This document shows positions 2,717 through 63,207 of a DNA stretch of 64,000 nt, one piece after another (the stretch's first letter is position 1; every line of letters starts with the position of its first letter). Position numbers and translations under genes: made by a program. The notes beneath the pieces were generated by a model, which saw nothing but the letters and a program-made list of their open reading frames with translations, had not been told where the DNA came from and made no database searches. This stretch comes from a virus. Its lineage: Duplodnaviria; Caudoviricetes. The DNA is taken from IMG/VR virus record IMGVR_UViG_3300021368_000002. The stretch is one strand, 5' to 3'.

Positions 2717-3409
2717 TTATGCTAATTTAGGGAATAACATATCTGTACAGAATTTATCAACATCTTCCTCAGGAAGTCCTAGAGATTTCATTACATTTGG
2801 TGTATGTGGATTTTGTTGCTGATTATGACAGTAGTAGTCTTGGCAAGCAGACACGATTGCAGGATCACCTTCTCCATCAGTTATGCCTACTTCGTCAAAG
2901 TATGCTCTTAAATTATCTAATGCAATACGTATGATCTCAGTTGCTTCTTCATCTGTCTTTACATTACCAGCGGCAAGCATTTTGTCTGTAAAGATATTAC
3001 GAGCCCATTCTGGCAGTTCACGTTGCTTTTCTGGTATAAAGTGTTCTACACTTTCAAAGTAACCTTGTATCATATCGTGATTAGGGTCAGCACTTGGTGA
3101 AAAGTCGTGGAACGCACCTGTCATTTTATTTTTACCAGCAATAACATCAAAGCCGTAAATAGGTGCAGGATTGTTCAGTTGAGGGAAAATACAAACGTGC
3201 ATCATCCATAGTCCTTTTGAGTCCCTAGCATCAACAACATCTATATGAGCTCTTCGCACACTTTTGTTTGCCCAAACTCTGTTAATCCAACCACTGTCAG
3301 GTCTATTAAAATGATCTAATCCATCTTCTTGTATTTCTGTTGCCTGTTCATCAAAAATATTAATTATTTCATCTTTGCATTCTATTAGTTTATCCCAAAT
3401 CAAACTCAT
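2717..3409 (-). CDS. pcyX: Ferredoxin-dependent bilin reductase, PcyX/PcyA type
   Basis: RRAHIDVVDAR..GLWMMHVCIFP..PAPIYGFDVIAG..MTGAFHDFSP; directly downstream of heme oxygenase; likely start MSLIWDK at 3409. Confidence 0.85.
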   Translation of the reverse strand: MSLIWDKLIECKDEIINIFDEQATEIQEDGLDHFNRPDSGWINRVWANKSVRRAHIDVVDARDSKGLWMMHVCIFPQLNNPAPIYGFDVIAGKNKMTGAFHDFSPSADPNHDMIQGYFESVEHFIPEKQRELPEWARNIFTDKMLAAGNVKTDEEATEIIRIALDNLRAYFDEVGITDGEGDPAIVSACQDYYCHNQQQNPHTPNVMKSLGLPEEDVDKFCTDMLFPKLA

Positions 3410-3935
3410 CTGCAAGTTCCTTAAATAATTGTGTAGCAAATTCAAAACAGACAATAGCTTCCTCTGCCATTGAATCGTTTATCTTTGCTCTAATTTTTTC
3501 TTTATATTCGTTAACATCACAATCAAATTTGTAATAGTTACCTTCTCCTGGTACCCGCTTGGCTATCATTTGTCCGCCGCTTAGGTCGCCCATATGTCTT
3601 ACATAGACGTGTGCCATAATTTTATCTGCATCGTCCATGATAGATAACATATGTTTATGGTATTCTTCTATAACGTCTGTGTACTTGACAACTTTGTCTT
3701 TAGGCCATAGTTCTCTAGCATCTTTTAATATTGCTGGCCCACGTCTAATGTTTGGTATGTCATTAAATAATCCATGAGCCATTGCCATTGCTTCTAAAAC
3801 ATCATAGCAAGCGTGTTGGTGCCAAAGGTAACAAGCATACTGTTCATCAGTTAGCTGTCCTTTGAACATTGCTTTTACAAATGTTTGGCGTTCTGCATTT
3901 TTATGATGTTCCCAAGTAAGGTCTTTTAAACTCAT
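3390..3935 (-). CDS. hemO: Heme oxygenase
   Basis: EHHKNAE proximal His helix; AHVYVRHMGDLSGGQ signature. Confidence 0.93.
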   Translation of the reverse strand: MSLKDLTWEHHKNAERQTFVKAMFKGQLTDEQYACYLWHQHACYDVLEAMAMAHGLFNDIPNIRRGPAILKDARELWPKDKVVKYTDVIEEYHKHMLSIMDDADKIMAHVYVRHMGDLSGGQMIAKRVPGEGNYYKFDCDVNEYKEKIRAKINDSMAEEAIVCFEFATQLFKELADEFDLG

Positions 3936-4296: not shown

Positions 4297-4761
4297 TTAT
4301 TCTTGAGTTTCGCCTTCTAGAATATTGTTACCATCTACGATTTTAATACGCTTAGGTTGTAACTCTTCTGGAACTTCACGCTTCAAGTGGATGTTTAGCA
4401 TACCTAGTTCAAGGTTTGCACAATGCACTTCTACGTGATCAGCAAGTGTAAACTCTCTACGGAAGTTTCGGCCACCGATGCCCTTGTGTAGATAGTTTAC
4501 TTCATCTCCTCCTTTAGGAGCTGTTCCTTCTACTCTCAAAATATTACCGTCTTTAGTAATTTCTAAGTTATCCATACCAAAGCCAGCAACCGCAAGAGAG
4601 ATCATATACTCGTCTTCGTTGATTTGTGCAATGTTGTATGGAGGATAACCGTTACCGTTTGGACTGTTTGCAAATGAACGTTCTAGTTCATTGAATAGTC
4701 TGTCAAAGCCAATAGTTGCTCTGTGAAAGTTAGGTAGGTCTAGAGTTGTTAGTCTTGTCAT
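4297..4761 (-). CDS. hsp20: Small heat-shock protein (Hsp20/IbpA type)
   Basis: IGFDRLF, YPPYNI, LAVAGF, YLHKGIGGRNFRREF and LGMLNIHL motifs. Confidence 0.95.
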   Translation of the reverse strand: MTRLTTLDLPNFHRATIGFDRLFNELERSFANSPNGNGYPPYNIAQINEDEYMISLAVAGFGMDNLEITKDGNILRVEGTAPKGGDEVNYLHKGIGGRNFRREFTLADHVEVHCANLELGMLNIHLKREVPEELQPKRIKIVDGNNILEGETQE

Positions 4762-5488: not shown

Positions 5489-6646
5489 TTAAAATCCGAC
5501 TGTGTTTTTTTCGTATACTGCATTGTGCGTTTGTGTACAACGCACAAACGTGGTGCATTTACTTAGATGCTTTAATCTTACTGCACCTGCGTAAGTACAA
5601 GCAGAACGCAACCCACCCAAAATATTTTGAATAGTATTACCCACTGCTCCTCTGTAAGGCACAAGAACTTCTCGTCCTTCACTACTTCTATACTCCTTAA
5701 GGCCACCAAAATGTTTGTCGTTCGCGGCCTTTGAACTCATTCCGTAGAATTGTACAAACTGCTTGTTTTCTATTACAGGATGATAGGTTTCGTCATTTTG
5801 CTTAAACCAGTGTTCACCTGTTGCGTAATATTTGGTGATTACTTCCCCACCGCCTTCATCGTGCCCAGCAAGCATCCCGCCAAGCATAACAAAATCTGCT
5901 CCGCCTGCAAAGGCTTTAGCGACATCTCCAGGGCAAGTACACCCGCCGTCAGCAATAACGTGACCCCCAAGTCCATGTGCGGCATCTGCGCACTCGATAA
6001 CCGCAGATAACTGCGGATATCCAACACCAGTTTGTATGCGAGTAGTGCAAACACTCCCGGGACCAATGCCCACTTTAACAATATCAGCTCCTGCAAGGAT
6101 AAGTTCCTCCGTCATTTCGCCAGTAACTACGTTACCTGCAATAATTACAATTTGTGGATACAGCTGTCTAAACTGCCGTACAAACGCAACAAAACGCTCA
6201 CTATACCCATTTGCTACATCAATACAAACATATTTTAGATTACCGTCTGCTTGCTCGTATACGTCACGAAACTTTTGATGGTCAGTATCAGTAATACCGA
6301 TACTCATAGCAACATAGTTTGTACGTTCATACATATCAGTGTCAAAATAACCCACAAGCTCTTGCACAGAATAAGTTTTCTTCAAGCAAGTGAATAAGCC
6401 GCCAGCAGCCAATTTATCGGCGATAGCGAACGTACCAACACCGTCCATGTTAGCAGCCATAATAGGAACACCACGCCAATGACGGTTATCAGGACGTATT
6501 TGCTCCATAGTCATATCTTCTGGCTGCCAATTACGCCATGTATAGCCTCGTTCTAGATCAACTTGTTTACGACTGCCTAATGTACTACGCTTAGGACGTA
6601 TCAAAACATCTTTGTAATCTAATTTGTTATCTGACTCAAGACGCAT
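5489..6646 (-). CDS. guaC: GMP reductase
   Basis: [28 protein letters not shown] and [13 protein letters not shown] motifs. Confidence 0.95.
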
Positions 6647-10413: not shown

Positions 10414-10893
10414 TTATTTGTCCATTTTAGCCACAGCAGCATCGTAATCTGCTCTGTCAATGATTCCTTCACGTAAAAGTTTTTCTCTGTTTGCCATATG
10501 TTTCATTTGTATTTCTTCTTTTGAACCACCAAAATATGCTACTGCATGGCCTTCTTCAACAAGAATATCTGTTAACCGTTCTGCGGGTTGATCTTCCCAA
10601 CGTTCTACCATAAAGTCTCCTAAGATACGTCCGAACTTGCCTTTCATATCTTCACCGTTTTTATTAATTTGTGTTTTTAATATTACATCGCCTTCTAGTA
10701 GTTCTTTTACTCTAGCCTTTGCAGCTTCGCCGAATAAATCTTCAACTTTATCTCTTGTTCTTGATTCTGGTGTATCAATGCCCATGATTCTCACACGTTC
10801 ATCTTTCATTACAATACCAAAACCTAAATCAATATCAACATCAACGGTGTCACCGTCTATTACTTTTATCACAGTTGCTCTGTACTCATACAT
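10414..10893 (-). CDS. Staphylococcal nuclease (SNase)-like endonuclease
   Basis: VIDGDTVDVDIDLGF, RVRIMGIDTPES and KFGRILG motifs; GAGGGC RBS. Confidence 0.9.
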   Translation of the reverse strand: MYEYRATVIKVIDGDTVDVDIDLGFGIVMKDERVRIMGIDTPESRTRDKVEDLFGEAAKARVKELLEGDVILKTQINKNGEDMKGKFGRILGDFMVERWEDQPAERLTDILVEEGHAVAYFGGSKEEIQMKHMANREKLLREGIIDRADYDAAVAKMDK

Positions 10894-10903
10894 TGCCCTC
10901 TCC

Positions 10904-11224
10904 TCATTTTTTAAATAGTTCCCAAAACTTGCCCATTAGTATTAATATGCCTCCTAGTATCAGCCATGCTATTGCAGGACCACCTCCGTCTGTATACCAT
11001 ACTACTGGAAAGCCTAATAACCATACAGTCTTTGCTGCATAGCTTTTCCAATTCCATAACACATATATTACACCGTCCCAGCTACGCCACTTCTTTGGTT
11101 TGTCTGGACCAAAAGTTGTTTTAGCATCGAGGTGTCTATAAAGTTCTGGATTTCTTTTGTAATAAATCCAAACTACTAAAAACATCAGCCCTATAAAGAT
11201 TAAAGCTGCTGTGTGTTCGCCCAT
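10904..11224 (-). CDS. Small membrane protein
   Basis: Three hydrophobic segments. Confidence 0.5.
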   Translation of the reverse strand: MGEHTAALIFIGLMFLVVWIYYKRNPELYRHLDAKTTFGPDKPKKWRSWDGVIYVLWNWKSYAAKTVWLLGFPVVWYTDGGGPAIAWLILGGILILMGKFWELFKK

Positions 11225-11418
11225 TATTCAGATCCAAACATTCCAATTAAATCGGGGCCGTAAGTTCCAGCTGCCCATGCTAATGCTACGATAGTAATAA
11301 CACCGTAAACTAGCCATTTCATTTTGAAGTCATCGACTTCCATTTTAAGGGCAACTAATTCGTTACCCAAAATTCTTACTGCTACTTCTAGTTTGCCTTT
11401 ATCGTCTGGTTGTGCCAT
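11224..11418 (-). CDS. Small membrane protein
   Basis: C-terminal TM segment; coupled to the next gene. Confidence 0.5.
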   Translation of the reverse strand: MAQPDDKGKLEVAVRILGNELVALKMEVDDFKMKWLVYGVITIVALAWAAGTYGPDLIGMFGSE

Positions 11419-31447: not shown

Positions 31448-31824
31448 TTTTTATCTCCTCGCTTGACGGCTTTACCCCGTCGCTCACTATTAAGACCGAG
31501 CTCGACGTCTGCTCGGCAATGTTATTTACACTATAAGATAAATTCTTAACTGTGTCAACCTAAAGTTGACAGACTCATGCAAAAATAGCATAACAGTCTT
31601 TACAAAAAAGCAGTAGACTTTTGTGTTATACTATAGTATAGTATGATAAATAGTTGGGAATAGGACAGTGATACTGCACTATTTTAAACTCCTAGAGCGT
31701 CTTCAGCTCTATAAAAATGATGAAGGGCATTTCCTATGCCATACAAAGGTAGCGCCGGGAGAGACCGGGGTACGTGACAGACCTTATTAGCCACACATAC
31801 ACATATACAAAGGAGAATGTAGCA

Positions 31825-32061
31825 ATGACTACACTAATCAATACGGCCAATTGGGTTGGCCTGCCATCTATCGCGGGATGGTTAAAGAAGCAAAGCGTAA
31901 AAATCAAAGCAAGAAGACTTGCAAATCAAACTGTAAAAGAACTATCAAGACTTTCAGATCGTGAACTAAACGATATGGGTCTTTCACGCTGTGACATTCG
32001 TTATATTGCTGAGAAGCATTATGATGATATGGTAAACAAAAATCTAGTGGGGTGGGTGTAA
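31825..32061 (+). CDS. DUF1127 (YjiS-like) small protein
   Basis: TVKELSRLSDRELNDMGLSRCDI motif; AGGAG SD before ATG 31825. Confidence 0.85.
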   Translation: MTTLINTANWVGLPSIAGWLKKQSVKIKARRLANQTVKELSRLSDRELNDMGLSRCDIRYIAEKHYDDMVNKNLVGWV

Positions 32062-47228: not shown

Positions 47229-47444
47229 ATGCAATACGGAATGTTTACTAAAGAAGGCGATGCGAAAGTCCACAAGTTGGTCCTGCAAGCGAGGCAGTAT
47301 GCGGATTTGGATGGACCGATTAATCCTGTAGAGCAGGCGTGGAATTGGTTGCTAAACGAGCTCCATGCACTAGGCGAGGATCCGGCTTTTGAAGAGGCGA
47401 CCGACACAGCCGTTAGAGAGGCCTGTTACGACAGGCTAATTTAA
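47229..47444 (+). CDS. Early hypothetical protein
   Basis: Promoter and GAGGGC leader; GMFTKEGD and ATDTAVRE segments. Confidence 0.65.
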   Translation: MQYGMFTKEGDAKVHKLVLQARQYADLDGPINPVEQAWNWLLNELHALGEDPAFEEATDTAVREACYDRLI

Positions 47445-47521
47445 TCGCCAAAAGAGGTTGACACTATAGCGAACAGGTGCTATAGTGTATGTATAGTTAG
47501 AAACGCAGAGAGGGCACAATC

Positions 47522-47869
47522 ATGCAATTCATCGTAAGCACACAGGGACTTGAGAACTATGGCGCACACTGTGAGGACGGCAAGTTCCGTTCGGGCAATG
47601 CCTACTGGAAGTTCAAGTCAGGCACGGACTACCTTGTGTCGGGCCTAGAGCGGCCGCAAGATGCGATGGCATTCGTTGCCTCGTTCGGTATGGACAATTC
47701 AATCGGTTGGAAGGAGTTCCCATGCGAGGTTGTGAGCGAGGATGAATGGGAGTCACAGTGGAACATGGACGACGAGTTCGATGTGGAACACAGAGAGTTC
47801 AAGCTCTCTATTATGGTTAAGGTGGATCCGAGAGATCCGGCGACCTACAAACGGTTTTTGGCAAGGTAG
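47522..47869 (+). CDS. Early hypothetical protein
   Basis: Promoter and GAGGGC leader; TQ..ENYGAH..YWKFK.G.DY segment. Confidence 0.65.
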   Translation: MQFIVSTQGLENYGAHCEDGKFRSGNAYWKFKSGTDYLVSGLERPQDAMAFVASFGMDNSIGWKEFPCEVVSEDEWESQWNMDDEFDVEHREFKLSIMVKVDPRDPATYKRFLAR

Positions 47870-47923
47870 GGGTTGACAACCCCGCCACCTGGTGTTATAG
47901 TAGTTGTATAGTTAATAGAGAGG

Positions 47924-48136
47924 GTGATGACAATGTTTGTACTGATTTGGAAAGGTGAAGAGATTGATTCGTTTGAGTCCGAGGCAGAGGCCCGGAGCAT
48001 GGCGAGTGAATACAACATGGCCTACGGTGGAGGTGTCCACGTAGAGTTTGTCGAGGAAGACGACGGACAGCCAAGTTGGGAGCAGGAGTGGGAAGACTTC
48101 GGCGAAGACGCAGGATACGAGATGGAGTATCTCTAA
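47924..48136 (+). CDS. Early acidic hypothetical protein
   Basis: Promoter and GAGGG leader. Confidence 0.6.
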   Translation: MMTMFVLIWKGEEIDSFESEAEARSMASEYNMAYGGGVHVEFVEEDDGQPSWEQEWEDFGEDAGYEMEYL

Positions 48137-48336: not shown

Positions 48337-48537
48337 AATTATAATATAGCACAAGCCTAGCACTATGTCAACCCCTTGTGCGAAAAAAGAATCCTTTGTT
48401 TTCAAGAGGTTAGAAAAAAAATAAAAATAAATTTTTCTGCTAAGTCATTGTTTTTAAACAAAACATTTTGCTTTACAAGTACGTATTGTTGTGTTATATT
48501 GTTTGTATGTTAACAAATGCATATAGGAGGGCAACAT

Positions 48538-48852
48538 ATGCAAACAACAACAAAAACATTAGACTGTGCTGTACGTGTAAATTGGGTAGCAGAGGATGCA
48601 GAATGGAAAGCAGAGTTTGAACAGTATGGCTATGACACAGATATGTGGGTTGCTGTAGGTGACTTTGATTATGAATGGAGAGATAACGTAGAAACTGTGG
48701 CTGTATTAAAAGACGAAGAATACGGTTTTATGTGTGGAAACGAAAGTGACAGGCGCTGCTACGGATTTACTGTGGATGTGTACAAAGCAGAGGAAGCAGA
48801 TGGCAACTACAGTTTTTGGATAACAGAGGAAGACTTTGAAAAAATAGGTTGA
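48538..48852 (+). CDS. Early hypothetical protein (TC/CC-free, no Pro)
   Basis: GAGGGC RBS then ATG at 48538. Confidence 0.6.
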   Translation: MQTTTKTLDCAVRVNWVAEDAEWKAEFEQYGYDTDMWVAVGDFDYEWRDNVETVAVLKDEEYGFMCGNESDRRCYGFTVDVYKAEEADGNYSFWITEEDFEKIG

Positions 48853-48913
48853 CAACTGTGTGTATGTGTGCTACTATGTACACATACACTAACAAGCAAT
48901 AGAGGGCAATGCT

Positions 48914-49165
48914 ATGCTTACAAAATACGAAAACGCAGTAACAAAAGCAATTGAATATTTTGCACTGCAAATTAACAACTGTGCGCACGACAGCGTAGTA
49001 GAAAACAACGACTACGGAATTTACGACAGCATAGACAGCATAAACTTTTTGTTTAGCAACTACAAAAATTTTGACAGCGTAACAGCACTTGCAAACTTTG
49101 CACTAGACAGCACACTGGATACTGTAGTGCGCGAAAACATATACTACGTGCTAACGGAAAAATAA
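48914..49165 (+). CDS. Early hypothetical protein (TC/CC-free, no Pro)
   Basis: Promoter and GAGGGC leader. Confidence 0.6.
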   Translation: MLTKYENAVTKAIEYFALQINNCAHDSVVENNDYGIYDSIDSINFLFSNYKNFDSVTALANFALDSTLDTVVRENIYYVLTEK

Positions 49166-49231
49166 CACTTGACAACTGTGTATGTGTGCTATAGTGTACA
49201 CATACACTAAACATAGCAGAGAGGGCAAACT

Positions 49232-49447
49232 ATGCTACAAGTACACATTTTACAACTGCAAGGCACAGGCGACGACGAGAAGGCTTGGGAGAACGCAGGG
49301 GTGTTTGCAAGTTGGGAAGAAGCACAAGAACGTGCAGCAGAATTTAGCAAAGAAGACATTGAGGAGTACGGCGAAGCGTTTTGGATAATGGGCGAGAATA
49401 TGCGTATTGAAACACATGACGTAGTAGACAACAACTGGGGGTACTAG
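49232..49447 (+). CDS. Early hypothetical protein (TC/CC-free, no Pro)
   Basis: Promoter and GAGGGC leader. Confidence 0.6.
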   Translation: MLQVHILQLQGTGDDEKAWENAGVFASWEEAQERAAEFSKEDIEEYGEAFWIMGENMRIETHDVVDNNWGY

Positions 49448-49519
49448 TAAAAAAAACAGTTGACAGCAGCAAGTTTTGTGTTATACTGTATGTACAGTTA
49501 AACAAAACGAGGGCTACGT

Positions 49520-49768
49520 ATGTTAACTACAAAACAACTTGCACGTAATGTGTTTTTAACTTATTGCAGCACTAGCAATACAATGTTTAAACATTGTAGC
49601 AAAACAAAGCCGCAGCACGTTAGCACAACAAACGTAAAAGCAGTAAAGCGCAACGTAAGCGCACAACTTGTGCAACAGTACAAAATGCTTCCTGCACTGT
49701 ACAACTTGTACAACAAAAACAAAAGTGTTAAGCAAACAGCAACACAACTAATTAACAGCATTGTGTAA
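49520..49768 (+). CDS. Early basic protein (GA/GG-free; no Asp, Glu, Gly or Trp)
   Basis: Promoter and GAGGGC leader. Confidence 0.55.
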   Translation: MLTTKQLARNVFLTYCSTSNTMFKHCSKTKPQHVSTTNVKAVKRNVSAQLVQQYKMLPALYNLYNKNKSVKQTATQLINSIV

Positions 49769-49842
49769 AAAAAACTTGACAACTGTGTGTATGTGTGCTA
49801 CTATGTACACATACACTAAACATTGCAACTAGTGAGGGCTAC

Positions 49843-50316
49843 ATGGCAATACATTACAGTACACAGGTACAAGACTACTTTGAACACTTGACAAACGAGT
49901 GTGCAGACGAAACACGTTTTACACAAGACGAAAAGTGTTTTGTGTTAGAATTTTTAGCAAACACACTGTATGGCTTAACGGAAGTAAACAGCGAAAGTTT
50001 GCGTGACGACAAGCAATTTGTGCGTATGCAAGATTGCAGTGAGGTAGCAGACAACTACGTAATGCTACTAAACAAACACAAACGCAGTGACTATACTGTA
50101 GTAAACGGCAAGTATGTGGAAAGTGACGAATACTATACGTTTACACTAGAAGATGCAGGCACTGCTATTTGCAGTTATGACACAGAGTATAGAGAGTGCA
50201 TAACAGAGCAATTTGAAGATGCACTTAACGAGTACTTTGCATTAAGCAAAGCAAACAAAATTGCAACACTTGATATTGCAAACTGTTTAGCGTGGCGAGT
50301 GTTTAACAGTTACTAA
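49843..50316 (+). CDS. Early hypothetical protein (TC/CC-free, no Pro)
   Basis: Promoter and GAGGGC leader; start MAIHYS. Confidence 0.6.
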   Translation: MAIHYSTQVQDYFEHLTNECADETRFTQDEKCFVLEFLANTLYGLTEVNSESLRDDKQFVRMQDCSEVADNYVMLLNKHKRSDYTVVNGKYVESDEYYTFTLEDAGTAICSYDTEYRECITEQFEDALNEYFALSKANKIATLDIANCLAWRVFNSY

Positions 50317-50513
50317 CGCTAACACTGTGCAGTGTGTGCAAATGCGTACACTGTGCGGCCCCGCTGTATAGCGGATAAAACATAACAAAAACAAGCACTT
50401 ACAAAAAAAATGCTAAGTGCTTGTTTTTAAACGAAACTTTTTGCTTGCATTGTGCAAATAGTTGTGTTATATTGTTTGTATAAATTAAATGTAACAGCAT
50501 AGAGGGTAATAAT

Positions 50514-50774
50514 ATGCAAAACACACAAACAAACAACTATGTATTTTTAGCAGCAGCAAACGCTGCTATTGTTGTAACTGTAAACAACAAAGTTGTTGCT
50601 ACAGACGTACAAACAGCAGACGCACTTGTGCAAGTGTTTTTAACACATAATATTAATGTACTAAAAGACACTATTATGTGTAGCAGCAGCATAGATTTTG
50701 CAGAAGAAGAGGGCTTTGCTAGTGACGCAAGTGCGCATAATATAATAGATGAAGCATTTGAAGCATTAGCATAG
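50514..50774 (+). CDS. Early hypothetical protein (TC/CC-free, no Pro)
   Basis: GAGGG leader; CSSSIDFAEEEGF segment. Confidence 0.6.
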   Translation: MQNTQTNNYVFLAAANAAIVVTVNNKVVATDVQTADALVQVFLTHNINVLKDTIMCSSSIDFAEEEGFASDASAHNIIDEAFEALA

Positions 50775-50879
50775 TACGCTAATACTTTAGTATAGCAAGC
50801 ACTATACAAAAAAGTGCTTGCTATTTTTATTTTTTGTGTTATATTAGTTGTATAAGTTAACAAGCATATGAGGGCTATT

Positions 50880-51149
50880 ATGCAAAATACAACAACAAAA
50901 ACCGCACGTAGCATTGTGCGTAACATCCTAAAGCAAAACAACGTAATGTATTCCTCACATAGTTATACAAACAAATGTGCAAATCCTGCGCTGCGTAATA
51001 TTTGCTTCCTCACTAAAAACTTAACTCCTGCTGTGCTGCAACAAATTGCTTCTTCGCTTAATGTTAGCAAAGTACACGCAACAAAGCCTAAGTTTTACAA
51101 TGTGCATCCGGATGCACGTTACCTACGCATTGTGCATTGCAAAATGTAA
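50880..51149 (+). CDS. Early basic protein (GA/GG-free except one site)
   Basis: GAGGGC leader then MQNTTT; one Asp, no Glu or Gly. Confidence 0.55.
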   Translation: MQNTTTKTARSIVRNILKQNNVMYSSHSYTNKCANPALRNICFLTKNLTPAVLQQIASSLNVSKVHATKPKFYNVHPDARYLRIVHCKM

Positions 51150-51222
51150 AAAAAACGGTTGACAAGTGTGTTTGTGTGTGCTACTATGTACACATAAACA
51201 CTAAAAAGCATAGGAGGGTTAT

Positions 51223-51414
51223 ATGCTTACACTTTGCAACAAAAAACTGCTGCGTGACGGCAGTTGCGTTTTTACAAACTTTAACTTTTACAACAAAGTA
51301 AAAGATGCAGACGGAGACGTGTGCTACTACTACGCAAACTTGCACTACAAAGGCACTACGCAAAAATGCAGTGTTAGTGTGCAAAACGGAAACGTAGTAG
51401 GTTGGCAAACGTAA
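51223..51414 (+). CDS. Early hypothetical protein (TC/CC-free, no Pro)
   Basis: Promoter and GGAGGG leader. Confidence 0.55.
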   Translation: MLTLCNKKLLRDGSCVFTNFNFYNKVKDADGDVCYYYANLHYKGTTQKCSVSVQNGNVVGWQT

Positions 51415-51659
51415 AAAGTTAAAAAAAATGCAAATTAGGGGTTGACAAACGGCTCCTCCTTTGCTATAGTGTATGTATAGTTAGAGAGCGAGGGCAAGAT
51501 GATACGTTTTATGACAGGACTTTTTGTAGTGATGGCAGCAGTAGGTACGCTAGAGGCGAACCACGAGGCGAGCTTGCTATGGTACGGAATGCTAGGCTTG
51601 GTTGGTTGTGCTGCAATGGCATGGCCGGTATGTGACGGAACACTGACAGGAGACGAATA

Positions 51660-52889: not shown

Positions 52890-53882
52890 ATGAATATCAT
52901 TATTAACGAAGGCACGTACAAGATACGAGGCAAAGACACTAGTGTAGCCGGTATGGTGTTTCCACTAGTAGAGGAATTTAAAATGGGTGCTGCAGGAGGT
53001 TACGTAACAGTCGACGGCAAGGCAGTCGCAGGCTTTCCAGATCGTAACATCAAGATCAAGGTGTCGGATGCGGATGCATACGAGTCAGTAGATGCTGCAC
53101 CTACGCAGAGAGAAGAGACCGACGAAGAGACCATTGAACGGTTGCGTGAACGATTTGAAATGCTCGAAGACATGACCCGAGCTGCTAAGAAAGGTGATGT
53201 GCGAGCAATGATCGTATCAGGACCTCCTGGTGTTGGTAAGTCGCACGGTGTAGAAAAAGTACTAGGCAAGCACGACTTGATTGCGCAGTTAGGCGATCGT
53301 CCTGCAAAGTACCAGGTGGTGAAAGGTGCTATGTCGCCCATCGGCCTCTACTGTAAACTGTTCAACTATGCCGACAAGGATAATGTATTGGTGTTCGACG
53401 ACTGTGACTCAATCTTCAGCGACGAACTATCGTTGAACATCCTCAAAGCAGCACTTGATTCGAAGAAGACACGTACCATCCATTGGAACACTGATTCATT
53501 CAAGCTACGTAACGAAGGCGTGCCGGATTCATTCGAGTTCAAAGGTTCAGCGATCTTTATCACGAACTTGAAGTTCGACAAGACCAAAGGCAAATTGCGT
53601 GAGCATCTAATGGCACTAGAAAGTCGTTGCCATTACATCGACCTTACGATTGATACCGAGCGAGAGAAGATGCTGCGTATCAAACAGATCGTCGGCGATG
53701 GTATGCTCCGTGAGTACAAGTTCGGTGAAGAACTACAGCAAGAGATCGTAGACTTCGTTGATATTAATAAGAAGCGACTAAGAGAACTGTCATTGCGTAC
53801 AGTACTAAAGGTCGCCGATTTGGCCAAGGCATTTCCTACCAAGTGGGAAGCCATGGCAGAGAACACTGTGATGAAGCGTTAA
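52890..53882 (+). CDS. P-loop (AAA-like) ATPase
   Basis: Walker A GPPGVGKS, Walker B LVFDDCD, FITN and LESRC motifs. Confidence 0.9.
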   Translation: MNIIINEGTYKIRGKDTSVAGMVFPLVEEFKMGAAGGYVTVDGKAVAGFPDRNIKIKVSDADAYESVDAAPTQREETDEETIERLRERFEMLEDMTRAAKKGDVRAMIVSGPPGVGKSHGVEKVLGKHDLIAQLGDRPAKYQVVKGAMSPIGLYCKLFNYADKDNVLVFDDCDSIFSDELSLNILKAALDSKKTRTIHWNTDSFKLRNEGVPDSFEFKGSAIFITNLKFDKTKGKLREHLMALESRCHYIDLTIDTEREKMLRIKQIVGDGMLREYKFGEELQQEIVDFVDINKKRLRELSLRTVLKVADLAKAFPTKWEAMAENTVMKR

Positions 53883-59710: not shown

Positions 59711-61177
59711 TTATTCTGTTCCTAAGTTATTTAAAAACTGTTTTAGTTTAGTAGAATCTGCTTCGGCACGTATTTTACCTACGGTATCACCTTCTGCTGG
59801 ATCTTCTCTAACTTCACTAGTTTCTGACGGCATACTACCGTTACGTTTTATTTGATCGTAGATTGTAGATTTGCGTTTATCAAATTCTTTAAATTCTTCT
59901 TCATCGCCTAAGTCTCGAATACGAAGACTATCTACATCAAATTCTAAATCAATTTTTTGACCAACACCACTTGATGAACGTGTTTTCATTAACTGTATCT
60001 GATAACGTCCACGCTCACGCATAGCCCTACTTGTAAAGATACCAATTAAGTTGTCAGCAGTATTAATCTTACTAATACCACCCGAAATATGCGAGTGATC
60101 AAATTCAATTTCTTCCACACTGCTTCTGTTCAACTGCGATGCTGTTACAAACAAACAGTTCAGTTCCATAGCCAAGTTACGCAGTTCTTCTGATACATAC
60201 TTGTCTTTAACAAACAAGTTCTCTGCACTAATCTTGGCAGCAATCGGATGCATCAAATCCAAGTAGTCTACAAGCAATACGTCTACCTTCTTGCCTGTTT
60301 TAATTTCATACTCTTTCAAATAACTGCGGATGTCATTTGCATTCTTACCTGTGGGCATATACTTAACTTGGAACGCACCTGACTTCTTACCAATCATCTT
60401 AACTTTCATTTCAACATCATCAATTGATTTGAAAATATCTCTGCTTGGAATATCTGTAGTCATTGAATCTACACGCATACTAACCAAGTTCTCTGAAAGC
60501 TCAAACGTCAAGTAAATAACATTCAATCCTGCTAGTGCCCAGTTCACACCCAAGTTAGCCAAGAACAAACTCTTACCCGAACCTGATCCACCTGCAAAGA
60601 TGTTTAGCTCGCCTCTGTTGAATCCTCCGAACAGTTTCTTATCCAATGCCGGCCAGCCTGTGCTTACTTGTCCGTTCTTGTCTTTAATCGCTTCCAAACG
60701 TGAACGAGGATCTTTCCAATAGTCAGTACCAAGATCTTTTTGAAGGCCAATCTGCACAGCTTTCTTAACCAAGTCTTCACAACTGCCATATTCACCTTTC
60801 TCAAGCAAGTCAGCACTCTTAAGGATAGCAGCTTCTAGTGCCTTGTGCTTGCTAAATGTTTCAAACTCTTGTAACAGCCAATCATAGTGATTTTCTGCCA
60901 AGTCACCTGGGTGTTTCAAGTTTGCATCTGTTGCTGCATTTATCATGTCAAACGTAGGCAGTGCATTGTGTTCTGTTACATAGTCATTCAAAAACTTTGC
61001 AGGTTCCTGCAAACGTCTATCAAATGTTTTTGGATCAAACACCGCTTGACAACGAACAAAGCTCTCTGCGTCTGTCATCATCATCTCAAGATATACTTTT
61101 TGTATATCATAACCATAATCTGTATTCTGTCTTGTCATGTTTATATTATACTGCCTTATACCACACTTTGTCAACAT
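59711..61177 (-). CDS. Replicative DnaB-like helicase (T4 gp41-like)
   Basis: GGSGSGKS, VDYLDLM, ASQLNR and KTRSS motifs; likely start MTRQNTD. Confidence 0.95.
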   Translation of the reverse strand: MLTKCGIRQYNINMTRQNTDYGYDIQKVYLEMMMTDAESFVRCQAVFDPKTFDRRLQEPAKFLNDYVTEHNALPTFDMINAATDANLKHPGDLAENHYDWLLQEFETFSKHKALEAAILKSADLLEKGEYGSCEDLVKKAVQIGLQKDLGTDYWKDPRSRLEAIKDKNGQVSTGWPALDKKLFGGFNRGELNIFAGGSGSGKSLFLANLGVNWALAGLNVIYLTFELSENLVSMRVDSMTTDIPSRDIFKSIDDVEMKVKMIGKKSGAFQVKYMPTGKNANDIRSYLKEYEIKTGKKVDVLLVDYLDLMHPIAAKISAENLFVKDKYVSEELRNLAMELNCLFVTASQLNRSSVEEIEFDHSHISGGISKINTADNLIGIFTSRAMRERGRYQIQLMKTRSSSGVGQKIDLEFDVDSLRIRDLGDEEEFKEFDKRKSTIYDQIKRNGSMPSETSEVREDPAEGDTVGKIRAEADSTKLKQFLNNLGTE

Positions 61178-62117
61178 CTACTTTGGTTTTTGTTTTTGCC
61201 AAAACAGCACCAATACAACTACCAGGGTCACCAGGATTAGGAGGTACCCATACGTTTTTCCAGTCTTTACTTATATTATCAATTGCACTTTTATTAAGGG
61301 CCCCTCCACCTGCAACAGCTAAGGCTTGTCCATTATTAGTTTTCCAATGAGCATAGTTACTTAAAATTTTTACACACCATTCAAAAATACCTTGGGTAGC
61401 GGCTGCAATGTCTGCAATATCTTGAACTGTTTTTAATTCTGGACGCCACCATAAGCACCCTCTATGCAAATTTTCTCGCATTTTAATATAAGGTATAGTT
61501 TTATCTTGGTCTACCCTAATTATTTCATTACAAATTGTATGCCATAACCTTGTAGGGTCTCCGGCTTTTGCGTGTTGGGCTATTAAATATTCATCACGTT
61601 GCGGAGTAAACCCCATACGTTGGGTCATAGCACTGTAAAATAACCCTAAGCTATGCGGATACCCTTGTGAAAATATTTTCTTTAGTTGTCCGTCCTTACC
61701 GTGCCATATTGTAAGGGTTTCAAACTCACCTATGCTATCTAAACATATCACTGCACAATCATCATGGGGTTGTGTATAATAAGCATATGCAGCATGACTA
61801 AGGTGATGTTGTGTATATTCAATAGGACAATCTATATTCCAGCGTTGCAAATAATTTTTTATATTATTCTCTTTTAGTTTCCAACCTTGTCCAGCACGAA
61901 GTTGACGAAGAGTTTTAAGAACAGGTCTTTCATACCAAATAACTTTGTTAGGGTAACCAAAACTTTGAATAGCTACATCTATTTGCATATTATTAAAATC
62001 AGGGTCATGTTGAATTCCGGAAAAGTCTTTTGCAAGACTTGCCCAGCCTAATTTGTTGTTTTCAAAAACTGCTAGACTGGCATCATGACTATTGCCAACC
62101 ATACCCCAAGTTATCAT
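61146..62117 (-). CDS. NodU/CmcH-family carbamoyltransferase (N-terminal Kae1-like domain only)
   Basis: HDAS, HHLSHAA, DSIGEFET, HSLGLFY, GGGALN and PGDPGSCIG motifs. Confidence 0.85.
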   Translation of the reverse strand: MITWGMVGNSHDASLAVFENNKLGWASLAKDFSGIQHDPDFNNMQIDVAIQSFGYPNKVIWYERPVLKTLRQLRAGQGWKLKENNIKNYLQRWNIDCPIEYTQHHLSHAAYAYYTQPHDDCAVICLDSIGEFETLTIWHGKDGQLKKIFSQGYPHSLGLFYSAMTQRMGFTPQRDEYLIAQHAKAGDPTRLWHTICNEIIRVDQDKTIPYIKMRENLHRGCLWWRPELKTVQDIADIAAATQGIFEWCVKILSNYAHWKTNNGQALAVAGGGALNKSAIDNISKDWKNVWVPPNPGDPGSCIGAVLAKTKTKVDVDKVWYKAV

Positions 62118-62223: not shown

Positions 62224-63207
62224 TTATGTAAACCATTTTTTTGCTCTCAACCTAATTTTCAATGGAGATTGTTCTGCTTGTGTTGCTATACTATGTAATG
62301 TATACAACCTACCGTATTTATCAACCGCCTCGCTGACATCTGTTACCTCTGAAGGCCATTCAGGCATACTAACCATATAGCCTAACTCTATTGCTTGTTC
62401 GACAAGTTTTTTACCCGCTTTATCTCTATCAGGAACAACAATTATATCTTTGTCTAATTTATTCAATAACATAGATTGTTGTTCAGAAATTTCAGATCCA
62501 CCTAATGCACACCCTTCGATGTGTATTGCATCAATTTGTCCTTCACAAACAATAGCAAAAACTTTGTTATATCCTTGTTCGTCTAGTCCGTACACAAAGC
62601 CGGGTTGTACTTCAGTAAGATACTTAGGTTTCTTGTCAGGTACAACACTACGCCCTGTCCAACCTACAATGCGTCCTTCATAATAAAAAGGAATAATAAG
62701 ACGATCACGATAACCTAAACTAGGCGACCAGTAATAGTCTGTATCGTCTACGTTTAGATTACGTGATGCCATATACTCAAGCACAGCTATACTAAACTTG
62801 TTGAAGTCAGTAATGTCTGTAATCTTGATAGCATCTTCTGGCAACGGAACAGTATTGAATGTAGGTAGTAGTGCAATTCGTGTTTGTGCTTCAACCCCTT
62901 CATTCTCTCTCATCACTTCAAGTGCCACCTTGTTGATTACATCGTCAGGCGCTCCTGTCCATTGTAAGAGCCTTCGCAACTTGTGTGAGAAATTCCTGCC
63001 CGGTTGCCAGGATGCTTTGAAGCCGCAGTTAAAACAATGATAACTAACGCCTCCGTCTGGGTTGCTTATTAAGCCACCTCTGCCTCGAGTGTCTGCACTG
63101 TGTCCGTTATGATGACAGCACGGCGCATTAAAGGAGAGCCATCCACTAGGCGTTTGTTTACGCTTAGACGGCAAGTATGTCAGAACTATATCTCTTACTA
63201 CACTCAT
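62224..63207 (-). CDS. DNA primase (Zn-finger plus TOPRIM)
   Basis: APCCHH..YHCFNCG, VCEGQIDA and PDRDKAG motifs. Confidence 0.92.
   Translation of the reverse strand: MSVVRDIVLTYLPSKRKQTPSGWLSFNAPCCHHNGHSADTRGRGGLISNPDGGVSYHCFNCGFKASWQPGRNFSHKLRRLLQWTGAPDDVINKVALEVMRENEGVEAQTRIALLPTFNTVPLPEDAIKITDITDFNKFSIAVLEYMASRNLNVDDTDYYWSPSLGYRDRLIIPFYYEGRIVGWTGRSVVPDKKPKYLTEVQPGFVYGLDEQGYNKVFAIVCEGQIDAIHIEGCALGGSEISEQQSMLLNKLDKDIIVVPDRDKAGKKLVEQAIELGYMVSMPEWPSEVTDVSEAVDKYGRLYTLHSIATQAEQSPLKIRLRAKKWFT

Follow-up and report, generated by a model that had tools for sequence, protein, structure and literature searches.

A phage early-gene island almost without TC and CC on its message strand, probably hidden from a factor that acts on RNA at pyrimidine-C

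We describe an island of small early genes, in an uncultured marine jumbo phage, that is almost without TC and CC on its message strand from promoters to terminators. The island lies between positions 48447 and 51453 of a 64,000-nt stretch of viral DNA (IMG/VR record IMGVR_UViG_3300021368_000002; hereafter the window), and because TC and CC are banned on the message strand, its proteins lack proline. Throughout, YC denotes a pyrimidine followed by C (TC and CC together), and GR words denotes GA and GG. In relatives, it is each cassette's coding strand that the ban follows; it is conserved as under selection and travels with mobile cassettes. The island probably hides its messages from a factor that grips or cuts RNA at pyrimidine-C.

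The depletion is far beyond chance. On the plus strand from 48447 to 50901 (2455 nt), we counted one TC (at 49690), against ~103 expected from base composition, and five CC (49610, 49691 and 50359–50361), against ~67; the two combined amount to six instead of ~170. Neither dinucleotide occurs between 51124 and 51453. These counts are identical to those of the initial annotation of the sequence, and the contrast it drew with TC-rich flanks is equally clear in 200-nt windows, which hold 10–37 YC outside the island and 0 across it. No other island of this type exists within the window. CT was observed 104 times against 103 expected, and AC and GC were likewise undepleted; therefore, the banned set is precisely YC. 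Mutational decay is not the cause, given that the island is A-rich (37%), its T content (25%) lies below that of the flanks (30–32%) and CT is at expectation.

An assembly artefact, a concern raised in the initial annotation, is not the source of the island either. DNA runs from at least six independent studies, covering seawater, marine and marsh metagenomes, contained 79–96% of the island's sampled words, and metagenome contigs from two runs matched it with zero differences. In addition, contigs from two marsh RNA libraries were exact to the genes at 48538–48852, 48914–49165 and 49843–50316, with DNA carry-over possible in these libraries.

To place the island in a wider context, we scanned IMG/VR using the ATPase encoded at 52890–53882 as query and obtained 79 loci with 51–86% identity (L numbers below). 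Approximately 35 of the 79 carry an equivalent of the island, in the form of YC-free stretches of 0.3–3.5 kb in the same early region. The distribution of open reading frames (ORFs) was bimodal: ~90 ORFs had fewer than one YC per 100 nt, compared with 1325 normal ORFs, and few were intermediate; the modal YC count per island-type gene was 0. Homologues of island proteins encoded in other islands share 40–90% identity, occur in shuffled order and are all YC-free. Across 12 homologous cassette pairs with 814 nucleotide differences, there were three YC in total. None of the 13 population variants detected in metagenome contigs creates a YC, as ~22% of random substitutions would, and the three that add a new C do so after A each time. 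In 77 unique YC-free ORFs, proline made up 0.11% of residues versus 3.57% in normal small ORFs, and serine was encoded by 307 AGY and 2 TCN codons. These comparisons indicate that the ban is kept under sustained selection across the relatives.

Eight control dinucleotide pairs of similar frequency formed no island in either of two large relatives, of 275 kb and ~357 kb. The ~357-kb relative, rated 100% complete, has no YC-free island at all, and the trait is therefore accessory. In the 275-kb relative, cassette-type islands are confined to the early region, with the island internal to the contig; its one other YC-free stretch (253 nt) lies within an ordinary AT-rich gene. A single family can also switch state, as L011 80–301 contains one YC and its normal homologue contains 12 at 72% identity, suggesting that the trait is convertible within one protein family.

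The initial annotation had described a strand-specific depletion that overrides protein coding, and the relatives support this description. Two of them carry cassettes in the minus-strand orientation (L076 5990–6657 and L015 6295–6690), complete with their own promoters, ribosome sites and terminator. These cassettes are GA/GG-free on the plus strand and hence YC-free on their own message strand, which means that the ban follows the message strand and not the genome strand. The rule first proposed for the window, that YC never lies on both strands locally, consequently gives way to one in which the ban tracks the coding strand of each cassette.

We then examined how far the ban extends along a transcription unit. 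On the 5′ side, YC ends at or shortly ahead of the promoter, and from the −10 element onward the mean is 0.00 across 55 island promoters. The promoter spacer contains YC in 2 of 22 first-of-island promoters versus 80% of 318 normal promoters. On the 3′ side, the untranslated region (UTR) and the hairpin are YC-free, and YC resumes right after the hairpin. Leaders of all early cassettes, normal ones included, contain no YC up to the start codon. Each YC-free gene either has its own promoter or is preceded by YC-free sequence. In L022, a YC-free gene (11214–11417) is followed by an overlapping normal gene on the same RNA; the reverse order, a promoterless YC-free gene behind a normal gene, was found nowhere among the cassettes examined. 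This pattern points to a ban read by a factor that acts on single-stranded nucleic acid with YC specificity, one transcription unit at a time. As a separate observation, ~70% of first-of-island promoter spacers are free of GA/GG as well.

A series of mobile early-gene cassettes makes up the island, and each consists of a sigma70 promoter, a GAGGG leader, a small ORF and sometimes a hairpin terminator. It comprises eight small plus-strand genes with GAGGG or GGAGGG ribosome sites, nearly every one of which has a sigma70-type promoter of its own. Six of the eight contain 0 YC and encode mostly acidic products without proline, confirming the earlier statement that six YC-free ORFs lack this residue. 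Class A promoters (TTGACA-17-TACTAT) are located at 48849, 49776 and 51159, and a copy whose spacer is 15 nt long lies at 49170. They are embedded in an inverted repeat of alternating purines and pyrimidines (GTGTATGTGT...ACACATACAC), possibly an operator or a melting aid. The repeat spans the −10 element and the start site at 48849–48890, 49776–49817 and 51159–51200. Class B promoters, marked by an extended −10 element (TGnTATATT), are found at 48472 and 50445, and 50818 is a weaker site of this class. The island falls into units that are separated by two YC-free hairpin terminators (~50393–50429 and ~50794–50836).

The order of features, all on the plus strand, is as follows. The YC-free zone begins 27 nt upstream of the −35 element of the first island promoter (48472–48500; TTTACA-17-TATATT with a TGn extended −10), the last TC before it being at 48445. 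This promoter precedes a gene encoding an acidic, proline-free protein of 104 amino acids (48538–48852, 0 YC; alternative ORF start at 48517), whose homologues in L042 and L040 are likewise YC-free and to which RNA-library contigs are exact at 48612–48839. A class A promoter within its inverted repeat (48849–48877) is followed by a gene for 83 amino acids (48914–49165, 0 YC; RNA-library contig 48972–49184), and the class A-like promoter with a 15-nt spacer (49170–49196; TTGACA...TATAGT, as read from the sequence) by an ORF for an acidic protein of 71 amino acids (49232–49447, 0 YC). Next come a promoter at 49460–49487 (TTGACA-16-TATACT) and an ORF for a basic protein of 82 amino acids with three YC and no GA/GG (49520–49768). 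Downstream of a further class A promoter (49776–49804) lie a gene for 157 amino acids (49843–50316, 0 YC; RNA-library contig 49876–50063), the motif GGCCCCGCTG (50357–50366) and a YC-free intrinsic terminator (50393–50429; AAGCACTTA...TAAGTGCTT followed by a T run), which closes the first 2-kb unit; hairpins of this type also close islands in relatives. The second unit consists of a class B promoter (50445–50473; TTGCAT-17-TATATT), a gene for 86 amino acids that belongs to the most widespread island family (50514–50774, 0 YC) and a YC-free terminator hairpin (50794–50836) overlapping the next promoter-like site (50818–50845). A gene for a basic protein of 89 amino acids (50880–51149) has a normal YC content of 19, together with two GA/GG; a class A promoter (51159–51187) and the final island gene, encoding 63 amino acids (51223–51414, 0 YC), complete the array. 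The island ends at the first normal promoter (51442–51470), in whose spacer YC is back (CTCCTCC at 51453).

Genes flanking the island (47229–48136, and from 51499 onward) possess equally good TTGACA-17-TATAGT promoters and a normal YC content of 13–31 per gene. Early expression by the host polymerase alone therefore does not define the island. At the island's left edge, a near-consensus sigma70 promoter on the minus strand (48371–48343; TTGACA-17-TATATT) faces leftward; downstream of it, a GC-rich stretch of ~50 nt (48335–48290) ends in a hairpin and T run and may be a small RNA. This leftward promoter and hairpin element recurs in L003, L005 and L015, where it is inverted in L015.

Cassette-level strain variation was visible in metagenome contigs from two studies, in which whole cassettes were skipped or swapped with breaks inside promoters (e.g., 47174 joined to 51885 and 49135 joined to 50377). 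Since the variant joints fall in promoters, these act as recombination sites for cassette shuffling. We had also considered a genome end as the cause of contig breaks around the island, and rejected it in favor of repeated promoters and cassette-level strain variants.

Two cultured phages bear on the distribution of the cassettes. Melnitz, a T4-like phage of OM43, encodes a homologue of the family at 50514 with normal YC (11 in 267 nt; MZ577097.1 ~31,700–32,030, equivalent to L113 7860–8186), preceded by the same style of promoter and leader (TTGACT-17-TATAGT-atatgtatag), suggesting that marine T4-like phages and jumbo phages have early cassettes in common. A scan of the first 50 kb of Melnitz found no island. 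PA5oct carries one YC-free tract of 244 nt (NC_071039.1 264,906–265,148, equivalent to L080 44906–45148), where 3 × 10⁻⁴ such gaps are expected; the tract covers the doubtful ORF gp099, resembles the island in style, and is also GA/GG-free over ~140 nt (L080 44998–45137). Nothing beyond this tract was found in the 50-kb stretch of PA5oct that we scanned (220–270 kb). As part of a cultured phage, the tract offers a possible handle for experiments.

The island ORFs are real proteins evolving under a nucleotide-level ban. AlphaFold predicted a helical fold for the 157-amino-acid protein (49843–50316) with a predicted local distance difference test (pLDDT) score of 74, and the 86-amino-acid protein (50514–50774) was modelled with a pLDDT of 87; thus, for the two families modelled, proline-free island proteins are still predicted to fold confidently. 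Foldseek searches of both models against PDB returned nothing with E below 0.2, Pfam and PHROGs gave no significant match for any island protein, and an ESM Atlas look-up of the 157-amino-acid protein gave no usable match.

What escapes the ban is limited in kind. Lone leftover YC are mostly single proline codons, CCG or CCT, and the trinucleotide context of residual YC shows threefold enrichment of CCG, mainly through these codons and the motif GGCCCCGCTG. This motif is the only conserved CC-bearing element that the islands tolerate. The window contains five copies (0.73 expected; 36876, 38612, 46258, 46298 and 50357), and 24 related loci contain 50, all on the plus strand and intergenic. The 10-mer is usually followed by yTAG, is often paired at a distance of ~40 nt, and often stands where a YC-free unit ends on its 3′ side; it may serve as a promoter, as a signal for processing or as one of the Chi/ops type. 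Both this motif and the other exception reported initially, the palindrome GTGCATCCGGATGCAC (51102–51117) inside the gene at 50880–51149, are located exactly as described.

The two island genes that do contain YC had been said to lack GA/GG instead, and this proved accurate: the gene at 49520–49768 has none, and that at 50880–51149 has two. Extending the search to relatives, we found genes that are both YC-free and GA/GG-free on the coding strand (49520–49768, L022 7675–7920, L076 6415–6657 on the minus strand and L076 6912–7163) and genes that are GA/GG-free with normal YC (50880–51149 with its homologues, and L010 1313–1564). Genes of this class have basic products without Asp, Glu, Gly or Trp; in the case of 49520–49768, this follows from the lack of GA/GG. 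An 84% identical homologue of 49520–49768 in L022 obeys the same two bans. For 50880–51149, the reading frame is kept in L040, L042 and L079 with changes mostly at third positions, showing that GA/GG-free genes are protein-coding. They form a separate small class that is not part of a two-strand rule, and their RNAs have no unusual degree of structure. Three ideas about them were discarded: a single protein family (pairwise identity only 9–29%), a highly structured RNA in the case of the doubly banned gene (z = +0.5), and functional anti-Shine-Dalgarno sites in the TCCT motifs of 50880–51149, which are replaced in L079 by synonymous or different codons.

How might such a ban arise? Selection has cleared every YC step from the RNA-like strand, leaving messages without UC or CC at the cost of proline and all TCN serine codons. 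Such messages would escape the notice of a factor that reads single-stranded RNA at YC. To our knowledge, Rho is the only factor that reads UC and CC alike; each of its six primary binding pockets holds a 5′-YC dinucleotide. We infer that the selective agent acts on RNA and that this agent is Rho, giving escape from Rho slightly less than an even chance. A transcript without YC would offer Rho no loading place and could be completed even without ribosomes trailing the polymerase, as might happen in the first minutes of infection or when translation is stalled by a host defence. Because Rho acts only 5′ to 3′, genes downstream on the same RNA could carry YC.

Published work gives the signal that Rho recognises on nascent RNA as "up to six CC or UC dinucleotides", and shows that the composition of coding strands is selected to avoid Rho where ribosomes do not shield the RNA, with the antisense left pyrimidine-rich (PMC13323073, Nat Microbiol 2026). 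Several features of the island fit this picture. The banned set is exactly UC and CC, the primary-site ligands of Rho; the bias tracks the direction of transcription, including in the minus-strand cassettes of L076 and L015; its extent approximates the transcription unit, from the −10 element through the 3′ hairpin; and its logic is polar, as a YC-free gene may precede a normal gene on one RNA. Moreover, GA/GG abounds in most island genes, and the antisense RNA would therefore be rich in YC and exposed to Rho, which agrees with the published model. No phage-encoded Rho was found in five large relatives, which implies a host factor.

Other features weigh against Rho. The modal YC count per gene is 0 rather than a few, and since Rho is multivalent, purging the last one or two YC at the cost of all prolines exceeds what evasion needs. 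Neighboring early genes with equally good sigma70 promoters have normal YC, so that a reason for protecting only some genes must be assumed. The promoter spacer, although its own promoter does not transcribe it, is also subject to the ban; this fits selection at the RNA level only if promoters were inherited from island-internal positions via shuffling. Short 3′ UTRs up to the hairpin are YC-free, a minor matter for Rho and a relevant one for a nuclease. The GA/GG-free genes (49520–49768, 50880–51149 and those in relatives) fall outside the Rho account, 50880–51149 having normal YC, and the presence of Rho in the host is assumed.

A doubtful but credible alternative is an undescribed effector, from marine and freshwater bacteria or from the jumbo phages, that attacks single-stranded RNA or displaced DNA at every YC step, with a partner that may act at G-purine; the phages would then keep a swappable counter-defence toolkit written in a reduced alphabet, and would pay for it with proteins free of proline or of Asp, Glu and Gly. 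We regard as rather unlikely the narrower proposal of a YC-specific endoribonuclease, whether a host abortive-infection or defence enzyme or a phage shutoff enzyme, for which only must-survive messages, such as those for counter-defence, are made site-free. Such an enzyme would explain the strictness and the subset of genes better than Rho does: a single cut kills a message, which fits a mode of 0 YC per gene and the total sacrifice of proline, and only a subset of early genes is protected. The 3′ UTR ban reaches to a protective hairpin, the trait is accessory and sits on fast-shuffling cassettes as in an arms race, and a second enzyme cutting after G-purine could explain the GA/GG-free genes. 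However, we know of no natural RNase with UC and CC specificity. YC-free genes also share RNA with YC-rich downstream genes, whose cleavage would expose them to 3′ decay, and the spacer ban is explained no better than under Rho. The RegB family was absent from the five relatives, a weak negative because the control search matched nowhere.

An enzyme attacking YC in single-stranded DNA (ssDNA) appears improbable; it could be a TC/CC cytosine deaminase, an ADP-ribosyltransferase like DarT or a nuclease specific for ssDNA, and would target the non-template strand that is displaced in very heavily transcribed cassettes. The initial annotation had suggested avoidance of a TC-specific enzyme; if one is involved, its target may be RNA or the displaced non-template strand rather than duplex DNA. 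TC and CC form an APOBEC-type context (PMC7449416). The ban lies on the non-template strand, follows the direction of transcription and starts ahead of +1, within a spacer and −10 region whose DNA becomes melted or underwound, and cassettes YC-free on both strands would be fully immune. Against this, flanking cassettes with equally strong promoters are unprotected, the spacer is double-stranded in open complexes, and damage elsewhere in a 270–350-kb genome would be equally harmful, yet only island genes are purged. Nor does the island show a T excess of the deamination kind: neither TT/CT excess nor T-richness compensates for the missing YC.

Still less probable is a design for RNA folding and ribosome sites, in which removing YC takes away the Watson-Crick partners of GAGGG/AGGAGG and of GA/GG runs and leaves the message open. 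All island genes do use GAGGG or GGAGGG sites, and the YC-free leaders of every early cassette would suit this idea. Yet the ban extends to ATC, GTC and isolated TC or CC, none of which could hide a ribosome site; G-U pairs can still form; island RNAs have ordinary fold energies (z = 0.5, −1.3 and −1.6); and normal early genes do without the ban.

Least likely of all, and largely refuted, are the DNA-level ideas of the initial annotation, namely a first-injected segment cleared of restriction sites, or modification of YC/GR contexts with these genes kept unmodified on one strand for the host polymerase. In their favor, an end lies no more than a few hundred nt from an island in many IMG/VR contigs, GATC, GANTC, GGCC, CCGG and CCWGG are absent from it, and a carbamoyltransferase-like gene is present at 61146–62117. 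Against them, lone YC-free cassettes stand between early genes of normal composition, in both orientations, those that are inverted being YC-free on the opposite genome strand. The island is internal both in the window and in the 275-kb contig, no terminal repeats were found, and repeated promoters together with cassette swaps between strains account for the nearby contig ends. GTAC, GCGC and other palindromes of this kind survive in the island, and elsewhere in the genome YC abounds on both strands. Modification that blocks the host polymerase is further contradicted by flanking genes, which share these sigma70 promoters and have normal YC, and by the lack of any TGT/DpdA gene: the TGT profile (PF01702) matched none of five relatives of 237–358 kb, whereas controls were found in 14 of 14 genomes, and no TGT/DpdA gene or hypermodification gene set was present among the window ORFs searched.

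The carbamoyltransferase gene itself is real (minus strand, N-terminal domain, Pfam E = 5 × 10⁻²⁹), located between a Toprim primase (62224–63207) and a DnaB-like helicase (59711–61177), with no visible link to the island. The helicase and an nrdC.10-like ATPase of the window share 46–53% identity with those of Pseudomonas phage PA5oct, after which come Agrobacterium phage Atu_ph07, Sinorhizobium phage Phosso and a Vibrio jumbo phage. The relatives belong to the PA5oct/Atu_ph07 supergroup, and the nearest in culture infect Pseudomonas, Agrobacterium, Sinorhizobium and Vibrio. The window also encodes a ribonucleotide reductase and three tRNAs, and Rfam found nothing beyond these tRNAs between 46.5 and 53 kb. 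Auxiliary genes on the minus strand (86–1354, 2717–3935, 4297–4761, 5489–6646 and 10414–10893) include CsgG and CsgF for curli secretion, a ferredoxin-dependent bilin reductase beside heme oxygenase, HSP20, an IMPDH/GMP-reductase-like gene and a staphylococcal-nuclease homologue. A Megablast search with the island found no match among 50,697 phage records.

Full-text literature searches returned no description of phage genes purged of YC. The ban is among the strictest nucleotide-level constraints on coding genes known to us, as a rule on two dinucleotides overrides the amino-acid repertoire. If Rho is the agent, its pressure on incoming phage DNA would be strong enough to rewrite whole genes, and the islands would supply natural "Rho-blind" transcripts and promoters for studying how Rho finds its targets. 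If it is not, the islands would be the footprint of a sequence-specific activity directed at RNA or ssDNA in abundant aquatic bacteria. Either way, the YC-free signature makes a special class of early phage genes, perhaps those for counter-defence, easy to flag by computation, and the rule itself is a design principle for transcripts resistant to the agent.

Several known systems resemble the island in part. The first-step-transfer DNA of T5 lacks EcoRI sites, and the EcoP15I sites of T7 all lie in one orientation, so that short words are likewise missing locally or in an orientation-specific manner from early phage DNA. In T5 and T7, the matter is one of defined duplex sites and of a genome end, whereas the ban of the island follows the coding strand, leaves many palindromes intact and is not at a demonstrated genome end; duplex-site avoidance regardless of orientation is not what we observed, because the ban is one-stranded and flips with the gene. 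Messages free of the recognition site of the sequence-specific mRNA interferase MazF (ACA-less mRNAs) alone stay translated while the RNase is active, as YC-free messages might; the MazF case is mainly engineered and involves a trinucleotide, in contrast to the dinucleotides of the island, for which no natural RNase is known. In vertebrate RNA viruses, CpG suppression provides escape from ZAP, and there too a virus drops a dinucleotide bound by a host protein in single-stranded RNA. That suppression is partial and genome-wide and costs no amino acid, while the island ban is absolute and local and covers two dinucleotides sharing a 3′ C.

The APOBEC3 footprint in papilloma- and polyomaviruses shares the TC/CC context and strand specificity, but is modest and accompanied by a deamination signature, whereas depletion in the island is total, restricted to some genes and A-rich rather than T-rich (PMC7449416). 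Closest is the purine bias of Bacillota, in which, as in the island, the message strand is poor in Rho's pyrimidine signals, the antisense is pyrimidine-rich, the bias follows transcription and codon choice is constrained (PMC13323073). The Bacillota bias is graded, genome-wide and affects the cell's own genes; that of the island is all-or-none, as the bimodal ORF distribution shows, is limited to two dinucleotides in a few mobile cassettes with unbiased neighbors, sacrifices proline, and would depend on Rho only by our reading. We class the island as an extreme form of composition-based evasion of an RNA-binding host factor.

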